Source: Candidatus Ryanbacteria bacterium RIFCSPLOWO2_12_FULL_44_26
GTDB taxonomy: Bacteria > Patescibacteriota > Minisyncoccia > Ryanbacterales > HO2-45-13
Direction of reading: 5' to 3'
Assembly (NCBI GenBank): GCA_001821765.1
Contig: MHOA01000007.1
Coordinates: 9,565 to 73,564 of the forward strand
Length of the DNA stretch: 64,000 nucleotides
This document shows, piece by piece, positions 8,129 to 57,100 of the stretch (position 1 is the first letter of the stretch; each line of letters begins with the position of its first letter). Below the pieces are notes generated by a model. That model made no database searches and was not told where the DNA came from. It saw only the letters and a program-made list of their open reading frames with translations. The position numbers were made by a program, and so were the translations under genes.

Positions 8129-9922
8129 ATGGAACAATTAAGCAACATCCGGAATTTTTCTATTATCAGTCACATTGACCACGGTAAAAGCACGCTCGCC
8201 GACAGATTTTTGGAATTGACGCATACCGTGGATGCGCGCCATATGCGTGCACAGATGCTGGATACCATGGATCTTGAGCGGGAACGCGGTATTACCATAA
8301 AAATGCAGCCTGTTAGGATGAACTACAAATTAAAAACTGCAAACTATATATTAAATCTGATTGACACCCCCGGCCACATTGATTTTTCTTATGAAGTCTC
8401 CCGGGCCCTTGCGGCCTGTGAGGGGGCGATTTTGCTTGTTGACGCGTCTCAAGGAGTGCAGGCGCAGACATTGTCGCATTTTCATGTCGCGCGCTCTCTT
8501 CAGCTGCCGCTTCTTCCCGTAATAAATAAAATTGATTTATCTTACGCGAATGTGGAAGGGGCTAAAGAGGAACTGACAACTCTCGGATTTAAAAGAGAGG
8601 ACATCCACAAGGTTTCTGCGAGAGAAAACATAGGTGTTGAGGAGTTATTGGAAAAAGTGCTCCATAAGATACCGCCGCCGAAAAGCACGGGGGAAATTCC
8701 CCGCGCATTAATATTTGATTCGTTATACGATGAGCATGGCGGTGTGATAGCGTACGTTCGCATTTTTGACGGAGCTATAAAAAAGGGCGACAAACTGTTT
8801 CTTTTAGCCGCTGGAAAGCAGTGTGAGGCAAAAGAAGTTGGTTTTTTTACTCCGGCCAGAAAGCCGGCTGGCATCCTTGCAGCCGGCGAGATTGGGTATG
8901 TGGTAACGGGACTGAAGTCAATGGATGCGGTGAGGATTGGAGATACCATCACCGCTTTGCCGGCCGCAAGTCGTTATAATGTAAAGCCGCTTGGCGGATA
9001 TAAAGAGCCGAAGCCGGTTGTGTGGGCGAGTTTTTTTCCGGAAACGGCAGGTGTATTTGTTCAGCTGGGAGATGCGTTGAAAAAACTGCGTTTAAATGAT
9101 GCCGCGCTTGCTTTTGAGGAATGTTCCACCAGTTTTCTGGGAAGGGGGTATCAATGCGGATTTTTAGGGGCACTGCATCTCGAAATAGTCGCTGAACGCC
9201 TCCGCCGTGAATTTGGTCTTTCTTTTATTATAACAGCTCCGTCTGTTAGTTATCGGGTATATATAAAAGGCCAACGAAAGATTATTGTTTCTCCTCACTT
9301 GTTTCCCCCAAAAGGAGCAGCCGATAAAGTTGAGGAGCCGATTATAAGAGCTACAATTATTATTCCCGAACGGCACGTTGCGTCTGTTTTGAAATTGAAT
9401 CAGAGGTTTGAGATGCATGTCGGGGATATGGAATCATTTGGCGCCGAGCGGCTTATGGTGCAAGCAACGATGCCGCTTAGAACGTTTGTGAAAGATTTTT
9501 TTGACACGCTCCATAGCGTGACATCCGGCTATGCTTCTATACATTACGAGCACGCCAGCTGGCAGGAAACCGAGCTTATTCGAATAGACGTTGCGGTAGC
9601 CGGTGACGTTGTGGAAGCGTTAAGCCGTGTTGTTTCTCCTGCGTCGGCAGTGCGGGAGGCCAAATCTGTTGTAACGGCGCTGAAAGACATTCTTCCAAAA
9701 GAGCAGTTTGAGGTCAAGATTCAGGCTATTTGTAACGGAAGGATCATAGCCTCCGAGAGACTGTCGCCCCTTAAAAAGGATGTCACAGGTTATCTTTACG
9801 GAGGAGACAGGACCCGCAAGATGAAATTATGGAAAAAACAAAAAGAAGGCAAGAAAAAGTTAAAGGGAAAAGGGAAAGTGCATATTTCAACAGAGACATT
9901 TCTAAAACTTCTCCGAAAGTAG
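8129..9922 (+). CDS. lepA: translation elongation factor 4 (LepA)
   Basis: NFSIISHIDHGKST G1 motif, DTPGHIDF G3, NKID G4, 597 aa with LepA-specific C-terminal domain; lysine-rich tail. Confidence 0.9.
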   Translation: MEQLSNIRNFSIISHIDHGKSTLADRFLELTHTVDARHMRAQMLDTMDLERERGITIKMQPVRMNYKLKTANYILNLIDTPGHIDFSYEVSRALAACEGAILLVDASQGVQAQTLSHFHVARSLQLPLLPVINKIDLSYANVEGAKEELTTLGFKREDIHKVSARENIGVEELLEKVLHKIPPPKSTGEIPRALIFDSLYDEHGGVIAYVRIFDGAIKKGDKLFLLAAGKQCEAKEVGFFTPARKPAGILAAGEIGYVVTGLKSMDAVRIGDTITALPAASRYNVKPLGGYKEPKPVVWASFFPETAGVFVQLGDALKKLRLNDAALAFEECSTSFLGRGYQCGFLGALHLEIVAERLRREFGLSFIITAPSVSYRVYIKGQRKIIVSPHLFPPKGAADKVEEPIIRATIIIPERHVASVLKLNQRFEMHVGDMESFGAERLMVQATMPLRTFVKDFFDTLHSVTSGYASIHYEHASWQETELIRIDVAVAGDVVEALSRVVSPASAVREAKSVVTALKDILPKEQFEVKIQAICNGRIIASERLSPLKKDVTGYLYGGDRTRKMKLWKKQKEGKKKLKGKGKVHISTETFLKLLRK

Positions 9923-14327: not shown

Positions 14328-14394
14328 AAGATAAAGGTTTTTTCTGTTTATAGGGGGGGTTGCAAAAAAATTGAATAGAGTGTAGAGTAGTACA

Positions 14395-14420
14395 CAAAAA
14401 CCGCATGGTGCGGTTTTTGT
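14395..14420 (+). terminator. intrinsic terminator after ftsX
   Basis: AAAAACCGCA-TGG-TGCGGTTTTTGTGTT hairpin flanked by A and T tracts. Confidence 0.55.
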
Positions 14421-14443
14421 GTTCTTCGAAAAAGGAGAAAGAG

Positions 14444-27157: not shown

Positions 27158-27424
27158 CTAGCTCAAGTTATTGATTAAGTTTAATTTCTTTTCTCTACGC
27201 CAACCTTTGAATTCCCTTTCTCGTCTTCGGGCCTCAACTAAAGTTTTAAAATTTTCTGAGTACACAAGTATAACTGGTCGCCTAATTTTTGTGTATTGTG
27301 CGCCGCGTTTTGATTCGTTGTGCTGTTTGATTCGTTTTTCCAGATTATTAGTACACCCAACGTAAAGCGACCTGTCGGCACATTCTAAAATGTAGACGAA
27401 ATAATTCATACTATTTTTTGGCAC
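27158..27424 (-). CDS. GIY-YIG nuclease superfamily protein
   Basis: YFVYILECADRSLYVGCTNNLEKRIKQHN...RRPVILVYSE...EARRREREFKGW matches the ~90-aa standalone GIY-YIG (UPF0213-like) family nearly position by position. Confidence 0.8.
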   Translation of the reverse strand: MPKNSMNYFVYILECADRSLYVGCTNNLEKRIKQHNESKRGAQYTKIRRPVILVYSENFKTLVEARRREREFKGWRREKKLNLINNLS

Positions 27425-28105: not shown

Positions 28106-29467
28106 ATGTATCAACAAGTAAGATCTGCGCTGGTTGTGATAATTTTGGCAACGGTAGGCATATTGGCTCTTGGTGGTATTTATTTTTATCAAAACAAGGC
28201 CGAACAGGTAAAGACACGGCGAATAGAGACGCTTCGGGAAACGCTTGAACGGGAAGCGAAAACAGGAGTGGACGGGCAAATATTACCTGACGATTTTCCT
28301 ACACCCGCCCCTGATCATCGTGAAGCTGGCAAAAACGAGAACAGCGGGAAGGAAATTGTCATCCCCCCTGTAAGTGAACCACTCAACCATTTAAAAATAA
28401 GGGAGATCATCGCGAAAAGTGTCCAGTGGTTTAAGGAAGCCCAGGAACAAAGCGGCCATTTTCGCTATGAATACGCGCCATTTATGAATATATATGGAAG
28501 CGATGATAATATTGTTCGGCAAAGCGGAGCGCTTTACATACTTGGGGAGGTTTTCATAAGAGATCATAACAACAGATACACTCTTAAAGATACTTTAGAA
28601 AATGCTATATCGTATTTTACAGAAAGAACAGCGGAAGGTGAGTTAGATGGAACAACGTTTCTGTGTATTACAGATGGCGGCAATAACAGATGTACGCTCG
28701 GCACTTCAGGTTTGGCGCTCGTTGGAATTCTGGATTTGATTAAGAAACATCCTGAACTGGAAAGTCAGTACCGGCCGTTGATTGGTGGATATGCGAGTTA
28801 TATACTCGCCATGAAAAAGCCCAACGAAGGGTTTCGCGGGTATTATTATTTTGCAGGAGATCAAACGGCGAGCGAGTCGCCTTTTTCCAACGGAGAGGCG
28901 TTTTTAGCGCTGGTGAGATATTACGAAAATTATCCCTCTGACGAAGTCAAAACTGTCATTGATGATGCTTTTGATTACTTTAACACACAATACCGCCAGC
29001 AATGGGACGGCAACTTTTACCTTTGGGGGATGATGGCCATAAAGGATTTATATCGTGAAAATCTTAAACAGCAATATGTTGATTTCGTAAAAGAGTATAC
29101 GGACTGGCGGATTAGCGGACATAAGTCCAAACGACTTTCTGACCACAACAGGTGTGCTTACATTGAGGGGGTTATAAGCGCCTATTCTGTTTTAGAACCG
29201 GTTATCAATGATGATGAAAAACAGTATTACATTGAAGAAATAAATTTCTGGCTTTCTCAAAGCAGTAACTTGCAAGTGAAGGAACATGATACGCTTGACA
29301 TACACGCCGGCGGGGAGCGTACTGTCCTTAAGATAAAAAATCCCGAAAGGGCTGTTGGCGGATTTTTAACGGGATTGGGAAACCCCCTGCAAAGGATTGA
29401 TTTTACCCAGCACTGTTTAAGCTCCTATTTGCAGAAGCTGGTTGATATAGATAAAGAAGCCCTGTAG
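28106..29467 (+). CDS. hypothetical membrane-anchored extracytoplasmic protein
   Basis: N-terminal TM, then a 400-aa aromatic-rich domain with no confidently recognised motif. Confidence 0.4.
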   Translation: MYQQVRSALVVIILATVGILALGGIYFYQNKAEQVKTRRIETLRETLEREAKTGVDGQILPDDFPTPAPDHREAGKNENSGKEIVIPPVSEPLNHLKIREIIAKSVQWFKEAQEQSGHFRYEYAPFMNIYGSDDNIVRQSGALYILGEVFIRDHNNRYTLKDTLENAISYFTERTAEGELDGTTFLCITDGGNNRCTLGTSGLALVGILDLIKKHPELESQYRPLIGGYASYILAMKKPNEGFRGYYYFAGDQTASESPFSNGEAFLALVRYYENYPSDEVKTVIDDAFDYFNTQYRQQWDGNFYLWGMMAIKDLYRENLKQQYVDFVKEYTDWRISGHKSKRLSDHNRCAYIEGVISAYSVLEPVINDDEKQYYIEEINFWLSQSSNLQVKEHDTLDIHAGGERTVLKIKNPERAVGGFLTGLGNPLQRIDFTQHCLSSYLQKLVDIDKEAL

Positions 29468-29523
29468 ATTTCTCGCCGCAAGAGTTTTAAAAGCCGCGTT
29501 TTTATGTATGATATACATATAAA

Positions 29524-30282
29524 ATGCAGCAAAATTACTTTGAACTAACCAAAGCAATCGCGTTGAGTGATTTTAAGCTTCGATATCACGGATCAGTTCT
29601 TGGTATTTTCTGGTCGTTTTTAAAGCCTCTTTTAACGTTCGGTGTCTTGTATCTTGTTTTCTCGGTGTTTATACGTTTTGACATAGAAAATTATGCTCTG
29701 TATCTGCTTCTCGGAATCATACTTTGGAATTTTTTTGCTGAAGCGACCATCCTTTCTCTCAACAGCCTTGCCGGCAAAGCGCCCGTTATTAAAAAGATCG
29801 CATTCCCAAGGAGCATCATTATTGTTTCCTCAACGCTGACGGCTCTTTTAAGTTTCTTTTTTAATATTGTTGTTTTTGGAATCTTTTTTCTTTTCTCGGA
29901 TTTATCTTTATCTATTTCAGCGCTTTTATTTGTTATATTTACTGTTTGCCTTTATTTTGTTGCGCTTGGGACGAGTTTTTTTATTTCGGCTTTAAACGCA
30001 AAGTTTAAGGATGTTCGCCATATCTGGGAAGTGCTTTTACAGCTCGGATTTTGGCTCACTCCTATTATTTATACGGTGAGCATGATTCCCGAGAAACTGC
30101 ATTGGTTTGTGTATCTAAATCCCATGACTCGGGTGATCCAGTATTCACGTGAGGCAATTTTGCAGCAGAAGGTTTCTAATCTAGATGGAGTGTTTGCACT
30201 TTTTTTAATGACCCTCATTATTTTTTTTATTGGCTACTATGTTTATAAAAAACGGTCGCCCTATTTTGCCGAAGAACTCTAA
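29524..30282 (+). CDS. wzm: ABC-2 type polysaccharide export permease (Wzm/TagG-like)
   Basis: N-terminal LSDFKLRYHGSVLGIFWSFLKPLL signature of the ABC-2/Wzm family; 6 TM helices; 252 aa. Confidence 0.75.
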   Translation: MQQNYFELTKAIALSDFKLRYHGSVLGIFWSFLKPLLTFGVLYLVFSVFIRFDIENYALYLLLGIILWNFFAEATILSLNSLAGKAPVIKKIAFPRSIIIVSSTLTALLSFFFNIVVFGIFFLFSDLSLSISALLFVIFTVCLYFVALGTSFFISALNAKFKDVRHIWEVLLQLGFWLTPIIYTVSMIPEKLHWFVYLNPMTRVIQYSREAILQQKVSNLDGVFALFLMTLIIFFIGYYVYKKRSPYFAEEL

Positions 30283-30292
30283 TTAAATAACT

Positions 30293-30309
30293 AGACACCA
30301 GGTGTTTAA
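30293..30309. repeat. palindromic repeat copy 1 (ACACC-A-GGTGTTTAA), 21 nt upstream of RAYT start
   Basis: Self-complementary CACC-A-GGTG core shared with the copies at 30500-30522 and 30997-31011. Confidence 0.6.
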
Positions 30310-30499
30310 TAAATTAAAATAATAGCGGTATGCGCAAAATACAATTTGTTCCGGGTGAGTATTATCATGTGTATAGTAGGGGAAACGATAAATGTACTAT
30401 TTTTCGTTCTCACTACGACTACGCACGGTTTTTATTTCTCATTCTTTACTTTCAGTCGCCGTTTTCGGTATATAACGTCGGCAATGCTGCTGCTTATTT

Positions 30500-30522
30500 T
30501 ATTAAACACCAGGTGTTTAATA
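30500..30522. repeat. palindromic repeat copy 2 (perfect 11-1-11 palindrome TATTAAACACC-A-GGTGTTTAATA) inside the RAYT CDS
   Basis: Encodes FIKHQVFNI within the transposase reading frame. Confidence 0.6.
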
Positions 30523-30996
30523 TACGTGGTTCGAGAAAGGAGCAACTTTTCAAAAATCGTCTTGTGTCGTTGGTTAACTTCACTCAAATGCCAAATCACT
30601 TTCATTTGACTTTACTCGAGCGAGTGAAAAATGGAATTTCCTCTTATATGCAGCGTGTTTTAAATGCGTATGCGAAATATTTTAATACCCGCTATGAAAG
30701 ATCTGGGCATCTTTTTGAAGCGCCATTTCAAGCCGTGCATATAGAAGACAACGAACAACTTCTTTATCTCTCGGCATATGTTCATCGGAATCAACGCGAG
30801 ATTAAGAAGTGGAAGAATAGAGAACACCTTTATCCATGGTCGAGCTATCAAGACTATATTAGAGAGAATCGTTGGGGCGAACTCATTGAGCCGGGAATTG
30901 TATTAAAGCAATTTTCGAGTAAAAGTGAGTATAAAGATTTTGTTGAGACAAGTGGTGCAAAGGACAAATTACCTGATGATGTTTTTATCGACTATC

Positions 30997-31011
30997 AAAC
31001 ACCAGGTGTTT
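30997..31011. repeat. palindromic repeat copy 3 (AAACACC-A-GGTGTTT) forming the last codons and stop of the RAYT CDS
   Basis: CAA ACA CCA GGT GTT TAA = QTPGV-stop. Confidence 0.6.
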
Positions 31012-31030
31012 AATTAATGAATATTGTTTA

Positions 31031-31765
31031 ATGTTTATGGTTGAGGTTGCGATAAAAGTTGAACATCTTACCAAAGAGTTTAAAATTCCCCACGAGAGGC
31101 GTGACAGGTTAAAAGAACATTTTGTTCACCTGTTTCGTCCGCTAAAATATGAAACATTTAAGGCATTAGACGATGTTTCATTGGAAGTGAAAAAAGGCGA
31201 GTTTCTTGGTATCATTGGTCCAAATGGTGCGGGCAAATCCACATTATTAAAACTCATTGCCGGTGTTTTAAAACCAGACGCAGGATCGATTACAGTAAAT
31301 GGCAGAATATCGCCCTTTTTGGAGCTAGGGGTCGGTTTTGAGCCTGAACTTTCAGGAAAGGATAACGTATTTTTGTACGGCGTTCTTTTAGGCATTTCGC
31401 GAAAAGAAATCAAAGAGCGATATAATACCATTGTTGCATTTGCGGAACTTGAGCGATTTATGGATCAAAAGGTAAAAAACTATTCTTCGGGGATGCAGAT
31501 GCGCCTCGCTTTCGCGATTACTGCCCACGTCGATGCTGATATTCTTCTTGTGGATGAGGCACTTGTTGTTGGGGATGAGAGTTTTCAACAAAAATGTCTT
31601 CAGACAATGGATCGGCTGAGTGAGGAGGGGAAAACAATTATTTTTGTTTCTCACGATCTTGATCAGGTAATCGACTTATGTATTTCCGCACTACTTATTA
31701 CCAATGGAAAGGTTCGATGTAGTGGCACTAGTGAGGATGTAGCTAAGATTTATCTAGCTCAATAA
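31031..31765 (+). CDS. wzt: ABC transporter ATP-binding protein, polysaccharide/teichoic-acid export type (Wzt/TagH-like, no C-terminal carbohydrate-binding domain)
   Basis: Walker A GPNGAGKST, signature YSSGMQMRLAFA, Walker B ILLVDEAL, H-loop SHDL. Confidence 0.8.
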   Translation: MFMVEVAIKVEHLTKEFKIPHERRDRLKEHFVHLFRPLKYETFKALDDVSLEVKKGEFLGIIGPNGAGKSTLLKLIAGVLKPDAGSITVNGRISPFLELGVGFEPELSGKDNVFLYGVLLGISRKEIKERYNTIVAFAELERFMDQKVKNYSSGMQMRLAFAITAHVDADILLVDEALVVGDESFQQKCLQTMDRLSEEGKTIIFVSHDLDQVIDLCISALLITNGKVRCSGTSEDVAKIYLAQ

Positions 31766-31772
31766 GGGTTTT

Positions 31773-32699
31773 ATGTCCTTTGTTTTTAATGTAATTGTAA
31801 AAATTGAAAAAGGCACACAGGGTAACCCTGCTCGCCAGTATCTAGGAAGATTTATACGTTTTATTTTCCCCAAATTTTGGTTTTCGACATTTTTAATGAG
31901 ATTAATCGAAGAATGGCGCAGGACTATTTCTGTTACCGTGCAAGGTAAATCAATGTATGTCAATCTTAAGGATAAGGGAGTTTCACTGTCACTTTACCGT
32001 GATCACATCTGGGAACCTTATGAAACATCGCTTTTATTAAAATTACTTAAACAGAAAATGACTTTTGTCGATATTGGGGCTAATATCGGTTATTACACAG
32101 TTTTGGCTTCCGATGCTGTTGGGCCCCAAGGAAGAGTTTTTGCTTTTGAACCAGATCCAGTTAACCTCGACTTACTTAGAAAAAATATACGGATTAATCA
32201 TTGTTCCAATATTATCATTGAACCAAGAGCAGTGTCAGACAAATCAGGGCATGGTCAACTCTACTTATCTAAAATTTATTTCGGAGATCATAGAATATAT
32301 AAGTCGCACGATAATGAGATTTACAATTTAGGAGTAGAACGAAGTACAATATCTATCGGAGAAGTTGCTTTAGATGAATATTATGACATAAATCCAAAAG
32401 GAATAGATGTGGTAAAAATGGATATTCAAGGCGCTGAGTATAAAGCGTTGCAGGGCATGAAAGAGACACTTAAGAAAAATAAAGATATTATCATGGTTAG
32501 TGAATTCTGGCCTCATGGATTGTTTCAGGCGGGCGCTAACCCTAACACCTTTTTGCAAGAACTTGTTGACCTTGGATTTATGATCTACGACTTTGCTATC
32601 TTATGTAAAATTCCTGTTTCACCAAAGGTAGTTCTTACTCGCTTGAAAGGAACAGAGCACACCGATTTACTTTTTATACGTCGTATTTTAAATGTATAG
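31773..32699 (+). CDS. FkbM family methyltransferase
   Basis: FVDIGANIGYYTV...RVFAFEPDPVNLDLL matches the FkbM (TIGR01444) core. Confidence 0.75.
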   Translation: MSFVFNVIVKIEKGTQGNPARQYLGRFIRFIFPKFWFSTFLMRLIEEWRRTISVTVQGKSMYVNLKDKGVSLSLYRDHIWEPYETSLLLKLLKQKMTFVDIGANIGYYTVLASDAVGPQGRVFAFEPDPVNLDLLRKNIRINHCSNIIIEPRAVSDKSGHGQLYLSKIYFGDHRIYKSHDNEIYNLGVERSTISIGEVALDEYYDINPKGIDVVKMDIQGAEYKALQGMKETLKKNKDIIMVSEFWPHGLFQAGANPNTFLQELVDLGFMIYDFAILCKIPVSPKVVLTRLKGTEHTDLLFIRRILNV

Positions 32700-54141: not shown

Positions 54142-57100
54142 ATGAGTACAAATATATCTACACCACTGACAAAAACGTTCGTACGCCCGCTTTGTGCTGT
54201 AGCATTTTTTGTGTTTTTCGGTCTTGTCTTTGCCGGTGTTGCAGATGCGCATGAGATGCGCATCAACACCGGAGGCCTCTCCTTCGTTGATACCGGCGGC
54301 AACACTTGGGAAGCCGATGCGCATTTCAACACCGGCAACACCTTCTCCACCGCTGCTGCGATCAGCAACACGGCCGATGACCTGCTCTATCAGACCGAGC
54401 GGTGGGATGATGCGCCCGCCCCAGAGCTTGCGTATGCCATTCCCGTAGCAAACGGCGATTACATGGTTACCCTCCACTTTGCAGAAATCTGGTCAGGAGC
54501 TTTTTCCATCGGTGCACGGGTGTTCGATGTAGGGATGGAAGGAATCACCGTCTTAGACAATATTGATATCTATGCCGAGGCCGGAGCAAACACCGCGCTT
54601 ACAAAAACCTTTACTGCCACCGTCACCGACGGCGCATTGGACATACTTTTTACCCATGTAGTCCAGAATCCCAAGATCGCTGGGATTGAGGTGATGGAAC
54701 ATGAGGAAGAGACGCACCTTATGCATGTGGTGGCGGGTCCTGATCAAACCGTAGTGGATGATGACGGTGATGGCGCCGAATTAGTCACGCTGGATGCAGG
54801 TGATTCCCACACCCATGCGTTTGGCGAAACAATTGTAAGCTGGGTTTGGGCGGAAGGCGTCGAAACCATTGGCACAACTGAAGTCATCACCGCACCTTTT
54901 TCGGTCGGTGTCCATGAAATTTTGCTTGTTGCAACAGATAGTGCAGGAAATACCGGCAGCGATGCGGTAATGGTCACAGTGCTTGCGCCGAACGATGTAC
55001 CCGGCCTTGCCGGCTATTATTTTGATTTTACCGGCACCCCGCTTACATCCATACCGGATGTAAGCGCCCTGCAAGCCGACTGGGCGCAAATAGAGCCAAA
55101 TCTTAATTATGATGCGACATCAGGAAATTTTGCTGGAACTCCTTTTAGCGAAAACTTTGCCGCCCGCTATACGGGATTTATAGATATTCCGGTTGGCGGA
55201 TCATACGGCTTCGCGATAGAAAGCGATGACGGCTCGCGGCTTTTTATAGACGACGCGCTTTTGATCAACAATGACGGACTCCATGCGATGAAGAAGATGT
55301 CCGCGGTCAGCGCGTTATCTGCCGGGATGCATAAGGTTATGATTGAATTTTTTGAGGCAAGCGGGCAAGCAGGATTGAAATTTTACTGGACGCCTCCTGC
55401 GATAGCAGAGCAGATTGTTCCTTCAAGCGCGTTGTTTTATGAATATCCAGCGCTCCTCCCCGTCATCAATGTTATTGATCCTCTTTCAGGGCCCGAGGTC
55501 GGCGGCAATAAAGTAACGATAAACGGTTTTGGGTTTATTTTTTCTGTAGATGAAACAACGGTCAATTTCGGGGGAACAGCGCTTACGGGGAGCAGCCTTA
55601 CGATTATTGACGAAAATACTATAGAGGTTATTGCACCTGCGGGAATCGGAACGGTAGCGGTAAGCGTGGCAACGCCAAATAGCGTAAGCAAAGGAGAAAA
55701 TTATCTTTATATCGAAGATGCTCCGCCGCCCGTTCTGTTTACGAGCGGGACGCTCTTTTCAGGTATTAATGGCCCGACAAGCCTTGCTTTTGGACCTGAC
55801 GGCAAGCTCTATGTAGGAACGCAGTTCGGGACAGTATGGGTGTTAACGCTTGATGATAATCTCAACGTCATTAATTCCTATTCTACCGGCATCATTCAGG
55901 ATTCAGAGTCGACGTTTCGGAGTATTCTTGGCATCGCCTTTAATCCTTTAGATGATCCTTTAAACCCAAAGCTCTATGTGGCGCACAGCTTTCTTTTTCA
56001 TGGAGACGATATTGATTTTTATAAAGGAAAAATAAGCACCTTGAGCGGTCCCGGTTTAAGCGTTAAAGAAGACATTATCACGGGTCTTCCGGTTTCCGAT
56101 CACGATCACGGCATGAACGGCATGGAATTCGGAATGAAAGGGGAAATGTATATTCAAGTCGGAGGCAATACCAATGCCGGTGTCCCGGGAGTGCTCAGTT
56201 CTTCGGGGGAGCTGGATGAAGGGGCGCTTTCAGCGGCCACGCTGGTTGCCCATCTTGAGCGGGAAAATTTTGATGGGAATGTCACTCATAACTCAGCGGG
56301 GGAGCAAACTGGAGGGTTTGATGTTGAGGTTTTTGCTTCCGGTTTTCGCAACCCCTATGATTTGGTTCTGCATTCTAACGGAGGGCTCTATGGAACTGAC
56401 AACGGCCCGAACTTCGGGTATGGAGGGAAATCAACCGGGTGCGCGGCAGAAGGCCCTGACCCTGAAGAGCCTGACGAGCTCAATCTCATTGTTGAGAATG
56501 GATATTATGGCCACGCAAATCGTCTGCGCGGAGCAAGCGATCCTCGGCAGTGCGTGTGGCGCAGTATCTTTGAGCCGAGCGACGCGCAATATACCGCTCC
56601 CATGACAACATTCACCCCATCTACCAATGGCATTACCGAATATCGCTCAAACACCTTCGGCGGGCAATTAAAGGGCCATCTGCTTGCCTCGCGCTGGGAA
56701 GGGGAGCTCTATGACGTTGAGCTTTCAGGTGATGGCAAGAGCGTGGCAAGCCAAAACATCTTAACGCCGCAGGGGGGTCTTGATGTAACGACTGGTCCTG
56801 ATGGAACGATTTTCATCGCCCAACATCTGGCTGGTAAGATTATTTATCATAAGCCCAGTGAACCCGTCCCTTCCGTTCCTCATATTATATCGGCAACACC
56901 CTACCGAGGTCCGCTGACCGGAGAACGAACAGCGCTTATTACCGGTTCTGGGCTTAATGCGGGCGGTATGGCCATGGTCACGTTTGGAGGAAAAAATTGT
57001 CCAACCGTTTCTGTTACATCAACAGCTATAAAGTGCATGGTTCCAGCCGGCGACGCGCCGGGAGCGGTAGACATAGTGGTAACTACCGCAGGCATGACCG

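Follow-up and report, generated by a model that had tools for sequence, protein, structure and literature searches.

In the 64,000-nt stretch of DNA analyzed here (hereafter the window), which covers positions 9,565 to 73,564 of contig MHOA01000007.1 of Candidatus Ryanbacteria bacterium RIFCSPLOWO2_12_FULL_44_26, a gene for a Y1 HUH endonuclease stands between the wzm and wzt genes and is associated with three copies of one short palindrome, two of which flank the gene while the third lies in frame within it. It is probable that the gene and its palindromes form a compact unit of ~750 bp, which resembles both a REPtron (REP, repetitive extragenic palindrome) and the insertion sequence (IS) IS200, was inserted between wzm and wzt, and encodes a class 2 Y1 HUH endonuclease with flanking and internal hairpins. 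Judging from related enzymes, this endonuclease most probably recognizes the hairpin (9-11 bp stem, 3-nt loop) that flanks its own gene. The third copy lies ~25 codons ahead of the HUH motif, where the protein has a permissive insertion. The protein is similar to the REP-associated tyrosine transposases (RAYTs) but is not a canonical RAYT.

The 227-residue protein matches the Pfam family Y1_Tnp (PF01797) over residues 72-153 with a score of 30.1 bits (gathering score 23), which was the only Pfam match; no helix-turn-helix (HTH) domain was detected in it by Pfam. The HUH motif (H90-F-H92) and the catalytic tyrosine (Y150, in YVHRNQ) are invariant across alignments of 20 and 60 homologs. According to published criteria, Y-x-x-x-N-P denotes class 2 and Y-x-x-x-Q class 1 of the TnpA_Y1 proteins (PMC6006769); the class 2 signature reads YIHRNP in the consensus of the homologs and YVHRNQ in the window protein, with an invariant N154 and a proline-to-glutamine replacement. 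Taken together, the motifs NHFH, FQ, Y[IV]HRNP and the WSSY tail point to class 2 and not to the IS200 subclass 1.1. An AlphaFold2 model of the window protein (mean predicted local distance difference test, pLDDT, 89.3) and the homolog alignment indicate that residues 41-78 are inserted between alphaA and beta2 and that a C-terminal tail is present. The top Foldseek match of the model was 4er8_A, the Escherichia coli TnpA_REP with its REP hairpin (E 1.4e-5, probability 1.00, target template modeling score 0.68), followed by 2xm3, 2xqc, and 2vjv, which are TnpA proteins of ISDra2 and IS608. The likeness to TnpA_REP was seen because a fold search was made, as a sequence search of the PDB alone gave only weak matches to ISDra2 (E 0.005).

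Exactly three occurrences of the palindrome core CACCAGGTG were counted in the window, at positions 30296, 30507, and 31000 of the plus strand, compared with 0.12 expected, and none of 100 shuffled sequences reached this number. A search with AACACCAGGTGTT allowing up to two mismatches added one unrelated site. The stem in the window is GTTAAACAC. Of the three, only the internal copy, whose sequence TATTAAACACC-A-GGTGTTTAATA forms a perfect 11-1-11 palindrome, is a strong hairpin in DNA folding (-6.4 kcal/mol, z -4.8). The 3' copy supplies the end of the open reading frame (ORF), CAA ACA CCA GGT GTT TAA, which reads QTPGV and stop; this extension is not conserved in the alignment of 20 homologs.

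Comparison with relatives of the neighboring genes indicates how the unit came to its place. In the four closest Wzm relatives (L165, L166, L167, and L168 in our numbering of loci; 75-77% identity), wzm and wzt are separated by gaps of 2, 2, 40, and 3 nt, no Y1 gene is found at the junction, and the same downstream methyltransferase and glycosyltransferase genes are retained; one of them is annotated as Candidatus Ryanbacteria. It is because wzm and wzt adjoin without the Y1 gene in these relatives that the ~754 nt between them in the window are considered an insertion. The start of wzt is likely the ATG at 31037 (MVEVAIKVEHL) rather than the listed position 31031; the N-termini of related Wzt proteins, MADVAIKVEHL (L165) and MPELAIKVEHL, align with a start at 31037. 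Over 81 loci, the genes neighboring the Y1 gene are mostly unrelated, and the largest common neighbor family is shared by 8 loci. An earlier note, made from the sequence alone, had described a 227-aa ORF with a Y1 signature, three palindrome copies at the gene, a perfect internal palindrome, a 3' copy forming the last five codons and the stop, and a wzm-wzt pair split by the element, all of which are borne out by the Pfam score and invariant residues, the exact count in 64 kb, the positions of the copies, and the uninterrupted junctions described above.

The same architecture is found in homologs from many Patescibacteria. More than 1,400 close homologs (55-64% identity) were detected in Parcubacteria-type candidate phyla, and an exhaustive search of representatives clustered at 50% identity returned 88 clusters at E <= 1e-30, 4,005 at E <= 1e-10, and 13,896 at E <= 1e-3. 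Viral contigs contained one distant relative only, and the unit is therefore not regarded as phage-borne. Palindromes with a 3-nt loop were sought, without bias, in homolog loci taken from species-representative genomes; of the 80 loci retrieved, 76 have an intact ORF. Three mutually concordant hairpins were found in 25 of these 76 loci, an internal copy with one matching flank in 7 (including the window), matching flanks only in 19, and no hairpin in the remaining 25; concordant flanks are thus present in 44 loci and an in-frame internal copy in 32. The positions of the three hairpins are fixed. The upstream hairpin lies 9-60 nt before the ATG, where homolog loci carry a perfect hairpin, and the internal one lies 55-108 nt before the HUH codons (at +174 from the ATG in close relatives). 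The 3' hairpin begins 0-17 nt past the stop codon in most of the loci shown, and in five of them (the window, L017, L024, L025, and L030) the ORF continues for 15-29 nt into or past the hairpin.

The stems vary from locus to locus but are alike within a locus. For instance, GTCCAAAGC-nnn-GCTTTGGAC occurs three times in both L011 and L020, and the hairpins are of the form GTGCAAAGT... in L024, GAGCAACAT... in L032 and L035, GTTCGGAGT... in L038, TCCAAGGT... in L050 and L075, and CTTGAAAGGT... in L066, which belongs to Chisholmbacteria and encodes a protein of 36% identity. The bases of the stems are mostly TGT...ACA, with TGA...TCA in L032, L035, and L052. In 60-72% of same-locus comparisons, 10-nt arms show no more than one difference, compared with 2-3% between loci, and the distance between arms tracks the identity of the catalytic core (Spearman rho -0.39; Mantel 0/500). 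In addition, L054 and L070 have a further in-frame, locus-specific hairpin 220 nt after the HUH codons, past the catalytic tyrosine; the hairpin has therefore entered the gene at more than one site.

Several individual loci deserve description. In L151 (281-914), a change of frame coincides exactly with the internal hairpin (tblastn segments 1-46 and 69-227 in different frames); a pseudogene, an error in sequencing, or a rearrangement at this point could account for it. L023, L026, L027, and L028 share four neighboring gene families, L026-L028 having no detected hairpins and L023 no intact ORF, and they may represent a domesticated, vertically inherited branch. The metagenome-assembled genome (MAG) H14-bin043_1 contains three paralogs (L004, L013, and L019) that match the query at 49-56%; L013 and L019, in which the internal palindrome is lost, have a flanking hairpin (GTTAGACGC...) in common, and that of L004 is different and weaker.

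Variation of the internal hairpin indicates what is conserved in it. In close relatives it encodes V-K-H-x-V-F-N. Among six variants compared, the stem changes on both arms together and the amino acids shift as well: AAA CAC/GTG TTT (K H. V F), AAA AGC/GCT TTT (K S. A F), AAA CAT/ATG TTT (K H. M F), CAA CAC/GTG TTG (Q H. V L), CAA AGC/GCT TTG (Q S. A L), and CAA AGT/ACT TTG (Q S. T L). Covariation was examined in a 33-locus alignment anchored on the HUH codons, with hairpin-less loci included, against 500 shuffles. In the 10-bp helix, 80.9% of cells are paired; double-sided changes number 52, compared with 20.1 +/- 3.4 in the shuffles (0/500 reached), and the covariation score is 0.38, compared with 0.18 when shuffled (0/500) and 0.04-0.12 when the partner is slid. 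Within the K/Q/R-H-x-V-F/L motif, histidine is encoded by CAC in 10/10 cases (29/89 elsewhere in the same genes) and valine by GTG in 10/10 (24/108 elsewhere). The loop is exactly one codon in 30/32 loci, and the peptides are unrelated between subfamilies (FVKHRVFNI, KLQGSTLEE, ISEVGPPRL, IERGFASFI, and AVRSPTPNS). In the AlphaFold2 model, residues 57-65 form a helix end and loop within the 41-78 insertion and are the least confident part of the core, which fits a permissive segment whose sequence would be dictated by the DNA. Covariation at the protein level was also analyzed for the 120 closest proteins, whose diversity was too low for it to be informative without the DNA. These sequence comparisons show that the internal hairpin is selected as a nucleic acid and not as a peptide.

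Copies of the hairpin away from any Y1 gene were found in relatives. A metagenome scan with AAACACCAGGTGTTTAA returned 83 stretches, none of them from the source organism; about 60 of these are chance matches without the extended palindrome, and relatives that use the same palindrome carry the perfect 23-mer TGTTAAACACCWGGTGTTTAACA. Among the gene loci, L094 and L116 have three perfect copies of this 23-mer, and L135 has a perfect internal copy only, its flanking copies being two bases off. Within the sequence retrieved around the solitary perfect copies (about 0.3-8 kb to each side) there is no Y1 gene. Two of these copies share a contig with a gene locus: L083 lies on the 404-kb contig of L135 and L140 on the 208-kb contig of L116. 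Solitary copies occur in either orientation, and those in L082, L110, and L158 are intergenic. Three others are in frame within intact ORFs, namely those of RecG (L103:3012-3034), a Pif1-like helicase (L099:7877-7899, encoding NVKHQVFNS), and RNase HII (L140:11657-11679), all of which are DNA-metabolism genes. With about one exact solitary copy per 200-400 kb in the contigs of two relatives, the hairpin appears from its distribution to behave as a low-copy REP-like module, far rarer than classical REPs. Directly beside the first palindrome, ~30 nt upstream with respect to the gene, the RNase HII ORF of L140 contains a second, different one (TAATAGACCC-CGA-GGGTCTATTA), whose similarity to the hairpin preceding the Y1 gene in L022 suggests two hairpin families in one genome.

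An ordinary IS of the IS200 type, in which the flanking hairpins would be the left- and right-end hairpins, the transposase would move only itself, and the internal palindrome would be a by-product without a role, is the likeliest of the alternatives, and we nevertheless regard it as unlikely. The size of ~750 bp is that of IS200, the hairpins lie just inside both ends, the unit fits tightly between genes that adjoin in relatives, genomic contexts vary among homologs, and the fold also resembles those of IS608 and ISDra2 TnpA. However, subclass 1.1 is marked by DH[VI]H and Y-x-x-x-Q, whereas NHFH and the Y-x-x-x-N-P of the family are seen here, and the best structural match of the protein is TnpA_REP. 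Nor are there near-identical multiple copies as would be expected of such an IS: the exact protein has a single context, the window contains a single gene, and even the paralogs within one MAG (L004, L013, and L019) match the query at only 49-56%. Solitary, gene-free hairpins are left unexplained by an IS that moves only itself, as is the constraint on the internal copy at the nucleic acid level.

Regulation through double-stranded DNA would be a second explanation, in which the palindromes are operators for a symmetric dimer (the Y1 protein or another regulator) that autoregulates the gene and are neither cut nor moved. TnpA-type enzymes are dimers, for which perfect dyad symmetry is suitable, and the specificity of one protein would explain the agreement of the three copies within a locus. 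The upstream copy also overlaps a promoter-like sequence (-35 TAGACA and -10 TAAAAT at 30315-30320, 10/12 matches), but this match is not above shuffles, and the protein has no Pfam DNA-binding HTH. Operators usually conserve only the contacted positions, whereas complementarity is unbroken here over 10-11 stem positions down to the 3-nt center, including positions that vary freely. Considering further that autoregulation does not explain solitary copies in the coding sequences of RecG, the Pif1-like helicase, and RNase HII, operators without cleavage or movement seem quite improbable. With regard to the promoter-like sequence itself, its -35 element coincides with the left arm of the upstream hairpin and is created by the A-to-G mismatch of that arm (window 30292-30320), and the match ends 9 nt before the ATG and would yield a near-leaderless mRNA.

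It is very unlikely that the hairpins act as mRNA stem-loops (in the 5'-untranslated region, internally, and at the 3' end) that control stability, translation, or termination. All three are on the sense strand, in or beside the transcript, and IS200 does use mRNA stem-loops; however, a structural role in RNA does not require a common sequence among three stems, loops are often inverted between copies, and solitary copies are found in either orientation and inside other genes. A terminator scan detected no terminator-like site at the hairpins and no T-run after the 3' hairpin, and Rfam at a permissive threshold gave no match in 29500-31800. Mismatches of the G-T type on the sense strand are fewer than those of the A-C type (20 vs 34), a difference that is not significant; it speaks only weakly against a hairpin in mRNA and does not tell which strand folds.

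Finally, that the internal palindrome is a side effect of the codons for a conserved V-K-H-x-V-F-N peptide with chance matches at the flanks, as common AAA/TTT and AAC/GTT codons in an A+T-rich gene and conservation of the motif among the closest homologs might suggest, is hardly credible given three copies against 0.12 expected, and it is refuted by the exclusive use of the rare codons CAC and GTG (10/10), by stems kept while amino acids change in a compensatory manner, and by distant homologs whose unrelated peptides still contain a hairpin at this site matching their own flanks.

Several observations weigh against the preferred reading of an inserted class 2 unit whose enzyme recognizes the flanking hairpins. 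We infer hairpin binding and cleavage from knowledge of the family, and self-complementarity alone cannot distinguish a hairpin from a symmetric double-strand binding site. Both flanking copies in the window have one mismatch in the left arm and fold poorly as DNA (upstream copy, -1.5 kcal/mol, z about 0; 3' copy, -3.3 kcal/mol, z -1.8), and the unit in the window may therefore no longer be mobile. The exact protein, annotated in a MAG of Candidatus Ryanbacteria obtained from groundwater at Rifle (GCA_001819895.1), has a single genomic context in all 24 contigs read, which gives no sign of recent transposition, and the 64-kb window contains no solitary hairpin copy away from the gene. The internal copy is dispensable, since 19 loci keep concordant flanks and have lost it. 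Loops are often inverted between copies with no pattern in their orientation, and no GTAG/GTGG guide is visible in the hairpin sequences as printed, for which no formal motif search was run. The RAYT identity proposed in the earlier note stands with regard to the class 2 motifs and the best structural match (4er8); it does not extend to the NCBIfam equivalog NF047646 (REP_Tyr_transpos), for which the score of 20.9 bits is far short of the cut-off of 80.

If the inserted unit is a REPtron-like one, its mechanism may be proposed by analogy with TnpA_REP and with the TnpA proteins of IS608 and ISDra2. A dimeric enzyme would bind the hairpin extruded from single-stranded DNA and would cut and rejoin at its feet. 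As the hairpin is symmetric (a "double foot"), the two feet would be equivalent, and a module of ~25 nt could be cut on both sides, excised, pasted elsewhere, or exchanged. Such excision and exchange would in turn lead to in-frame landings in genes, including that of the enzyme itself, and exchange of modules would keep the three copies alike while frequently inverting the loop. Together, the two flanking hairpins could relocate the entire gene in the manner of an IS200-like unit. As for the internal copy, it would be an in-frame REP that is kept in step with the specificity of the enzyme and might also serve as a self-binding, autoregulatory site; autoregulation would likewise be permitted by the upstream copy through its overlap with the promoter-like -35/-10 sequence, which is not significant. 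A bolder version of this scheme, in which the ~25-nt hairpin is a mobile module cut at both feet, the copy in the own gene is a functional cis-element, and hairpin and enzyme co-evolve as a closed pair across Patescibacteria, is offered only tentatively, and we lean against it at present. In that version, self-binding or self-cleavage at the own-gene copy would tie enzyme dosage or gene integrity to hairpin specificity. Should it be true, dozens of natural cognate pairs, and potentially hundreds to thousands, would allow the recognition code between protein and hairpin to be read out.

The features of the locus are summarized in Table 1.

Table 1. Features of the Y1 HUH locus and its neighbors in the window
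Feature	Position	Strand	Details
Probable inserted unit, ~754 nt	30283..31036	+	From wzm stop codon to likely wzt start; junction alignment
wzm-type ABC-2 permease gene, left neighbor	29524..30282	+	Pfam ABC2_membrane, 68 bits
Upstream hairpin, TAGACACC-A-GGTGTTTAAT	30292..30310	+	Degenerate left arm; ends 20 nt before ATG
Y1 HUH endonuclease gene	30330..31013	+	227 aa, ATG to TAA; WSSY tail motif
Internal in-frame hairpin, TATTAAACAC-CAG-GTGTTTAATA	30500..30522	+	Encodes F57-I-K-H-Q-V-F-N-I65; loop is exactly one codon
3' hairpin, TCAAACACC-A-GGTGTTTAAT	30995..31014	+	Read through as QTPGV and stop, in another frame
Partial repeat of right hairpin arm, TTGTTTAAT	31024..31032	+	Directly after the 3' hairpin
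wzt-type ABC ATPase gene, right neighbor	31037..31765	+	Pfam ABC_tran, 86 bits

Partial arm repeats similar to the one listed in the table also follow the 3' hairpin in L005, L008, L012, L016, L021, and L029 and precede the 5' hairpin in L011, L020, and L021; such repeats might be what is left of doublets, or else sequences for cleavage or guiding. Elsewhere in the window, two other long perfect palindromes that are unrelated to the Y1 hairpin were noticed, one at 14392-14422 with a 14-bp stem and a terminator-like look (ACACAAAAACCGCA-TGG-TGCGGTTTTTGTGT) and the other at 55040-55066 with an 11-bp stem. A stand-alone 88-aa protein with a GIY-YIG nuclease domain (Pfam 65 bits) is encoded ~3 kb upstream of the Y1 gene, at 27158-27424 on the minus strand, and a 453-aa ORF without a Pfam match (28106-29467, plus strand) lies directly 5' of wzm and is kept beside the operon in the NCBI record.

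The question of how RAYTs recognize their palindromes, move them, and evolve together with them is, to our knowledge, largely unsettled; a few proteobacterial systems with hundreds of REPs have been the basis of most studies. The small genomes of Patescibacteria offer a minimal system in which a single gene goes with a pair of flanking hairpins, a hairpin in frame, and a few solitary copies. As many natural enzyme-hairpin pairs are available that vary between loci and are uniform within them, both the specificity code and the mechanism of homogenization are directly testable. The internal hairpin is also a case in which selection on DNA structure overrides the amino acid sequence of a protein segment, which bears on the spread of in-frame palindromes into DNA-metabolism genes. 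With respect to annotation, Y1 genes of this hairpin-associated family of Patescibacteria should not carry the plain label "IS200 transposase".

Among known systems, the REPtron of E. coli TnpA_REP (RAYT group 2, subclass 2.2; PDB 4ER8; PMC3333891, PMC3479197) has the same Y1 HUH fold, cognate hairpins that bracket the gene, the same hairpin elsewhere in the genome (here, in relatives), and apparently one gene per genome. However, sequence identity to TnpA_REP is only ~12% and the NCBIfam RAYT cut-off is missed here. In the present family, the hairpins are short and perfectly palindromic, with neither the 5' GT[AG]G guide nor the bulges of E. coli REPs, and solitary copies are few (in contigs of relatives) whereas E. 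coli has hundreds. Further differences are that the whole unit appears as an insertion polymorphism here and that a third copy lies in frame inside the gene.

Elements of the IS200/IS605 family (IS200, IS608, and ISDra2) are similar in their length of ~0.7 kb, their subterminal hairpins at both ends, the lack of inverted terminal repeats, and the tight intergenic insertion, and a comparable single-strand "peel and paste" chemistry is likely here by analogy. In contrast to them, the present family has class 2 motifs, no multiple identical copies, solitary hairpins, and left and right hairpins that are the same perfect palindrome. Proteins of subclass 1.1 in particular have DH[VI]H, Y[IV]ENQ, and a core-only length of ~150 aa, whereas the window protein has NHFH, YVHRNQ, and 227 aa.

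In-frame palindromes in functional genes, represented here by RecG, the Pif1-like helicase, and RNase HII of relatives, are reminiscent of the Rickettsia palindromic elements (RPEs). RPEs and REP-tagged proteins are in-frame palindromic elements in ORFs (cited in PMC3733652), often in DNA-metabolism genes. Compared with these, the modules found here are much shorter (~25 nt) and are tied to a cognate Y1 gene that itself carries one.

Within the TnpA_Y1 proteins, the published motif pattern closest to the window protein by inspection is that of subclass 2.1 (Bertels group 1), judged by eye against the motif table: NH[YF]H, FQ for WQ, and Y[IV]H.NP, as well as an SS motif conserved in the C-terminal tail and more than 200 aa in all. 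Subclass 2.1 is reported to have no REP-like sequences and to have a C-terminal HTH (Bac_DnaA_C, HTH_23 or HTH_28) (PMC6006769), whereas hairpins are present here and no HTH is found by Pfam, the two being compared by published motifs.

In-frame palindromes were considered unusual in the earlier note, and they are; they are not unprecedented, however, as subclass 2.4 (Bertels group 4; Cyanobacteria and Bacteroidetes) is reported to have REPs in frame within tnpA_REP genes (Quentin et al. 2018, PMC6006769). In both cases the gene has cognate symmetric "double foot" REPs on its flanks and also contains them with the frame kept, and the HUH motif is of the NH[IFV]H type. The differences are that the internal site is fixed here, upstream of the HUH codons and with a loop of one codon in nearly all loci, that FQ and YIHRNP replace WQ and YIxNNP, that the hosts are Patescibacteria, and that the internal copy covaries with the flanks, of which no description was found. 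Literature searches found no description of a hairpin-associated Y1 family in Patescibacteria. In-frame REPs inside tnpA_REP genes are thus already known from subclass 2.4, and what is new here is a Patescibacteria-wide family with a fixed in-frame site, an internal copy that covaries with the flanks even where this alters the protein sequence, and evidence for movement of the unit as a whole.

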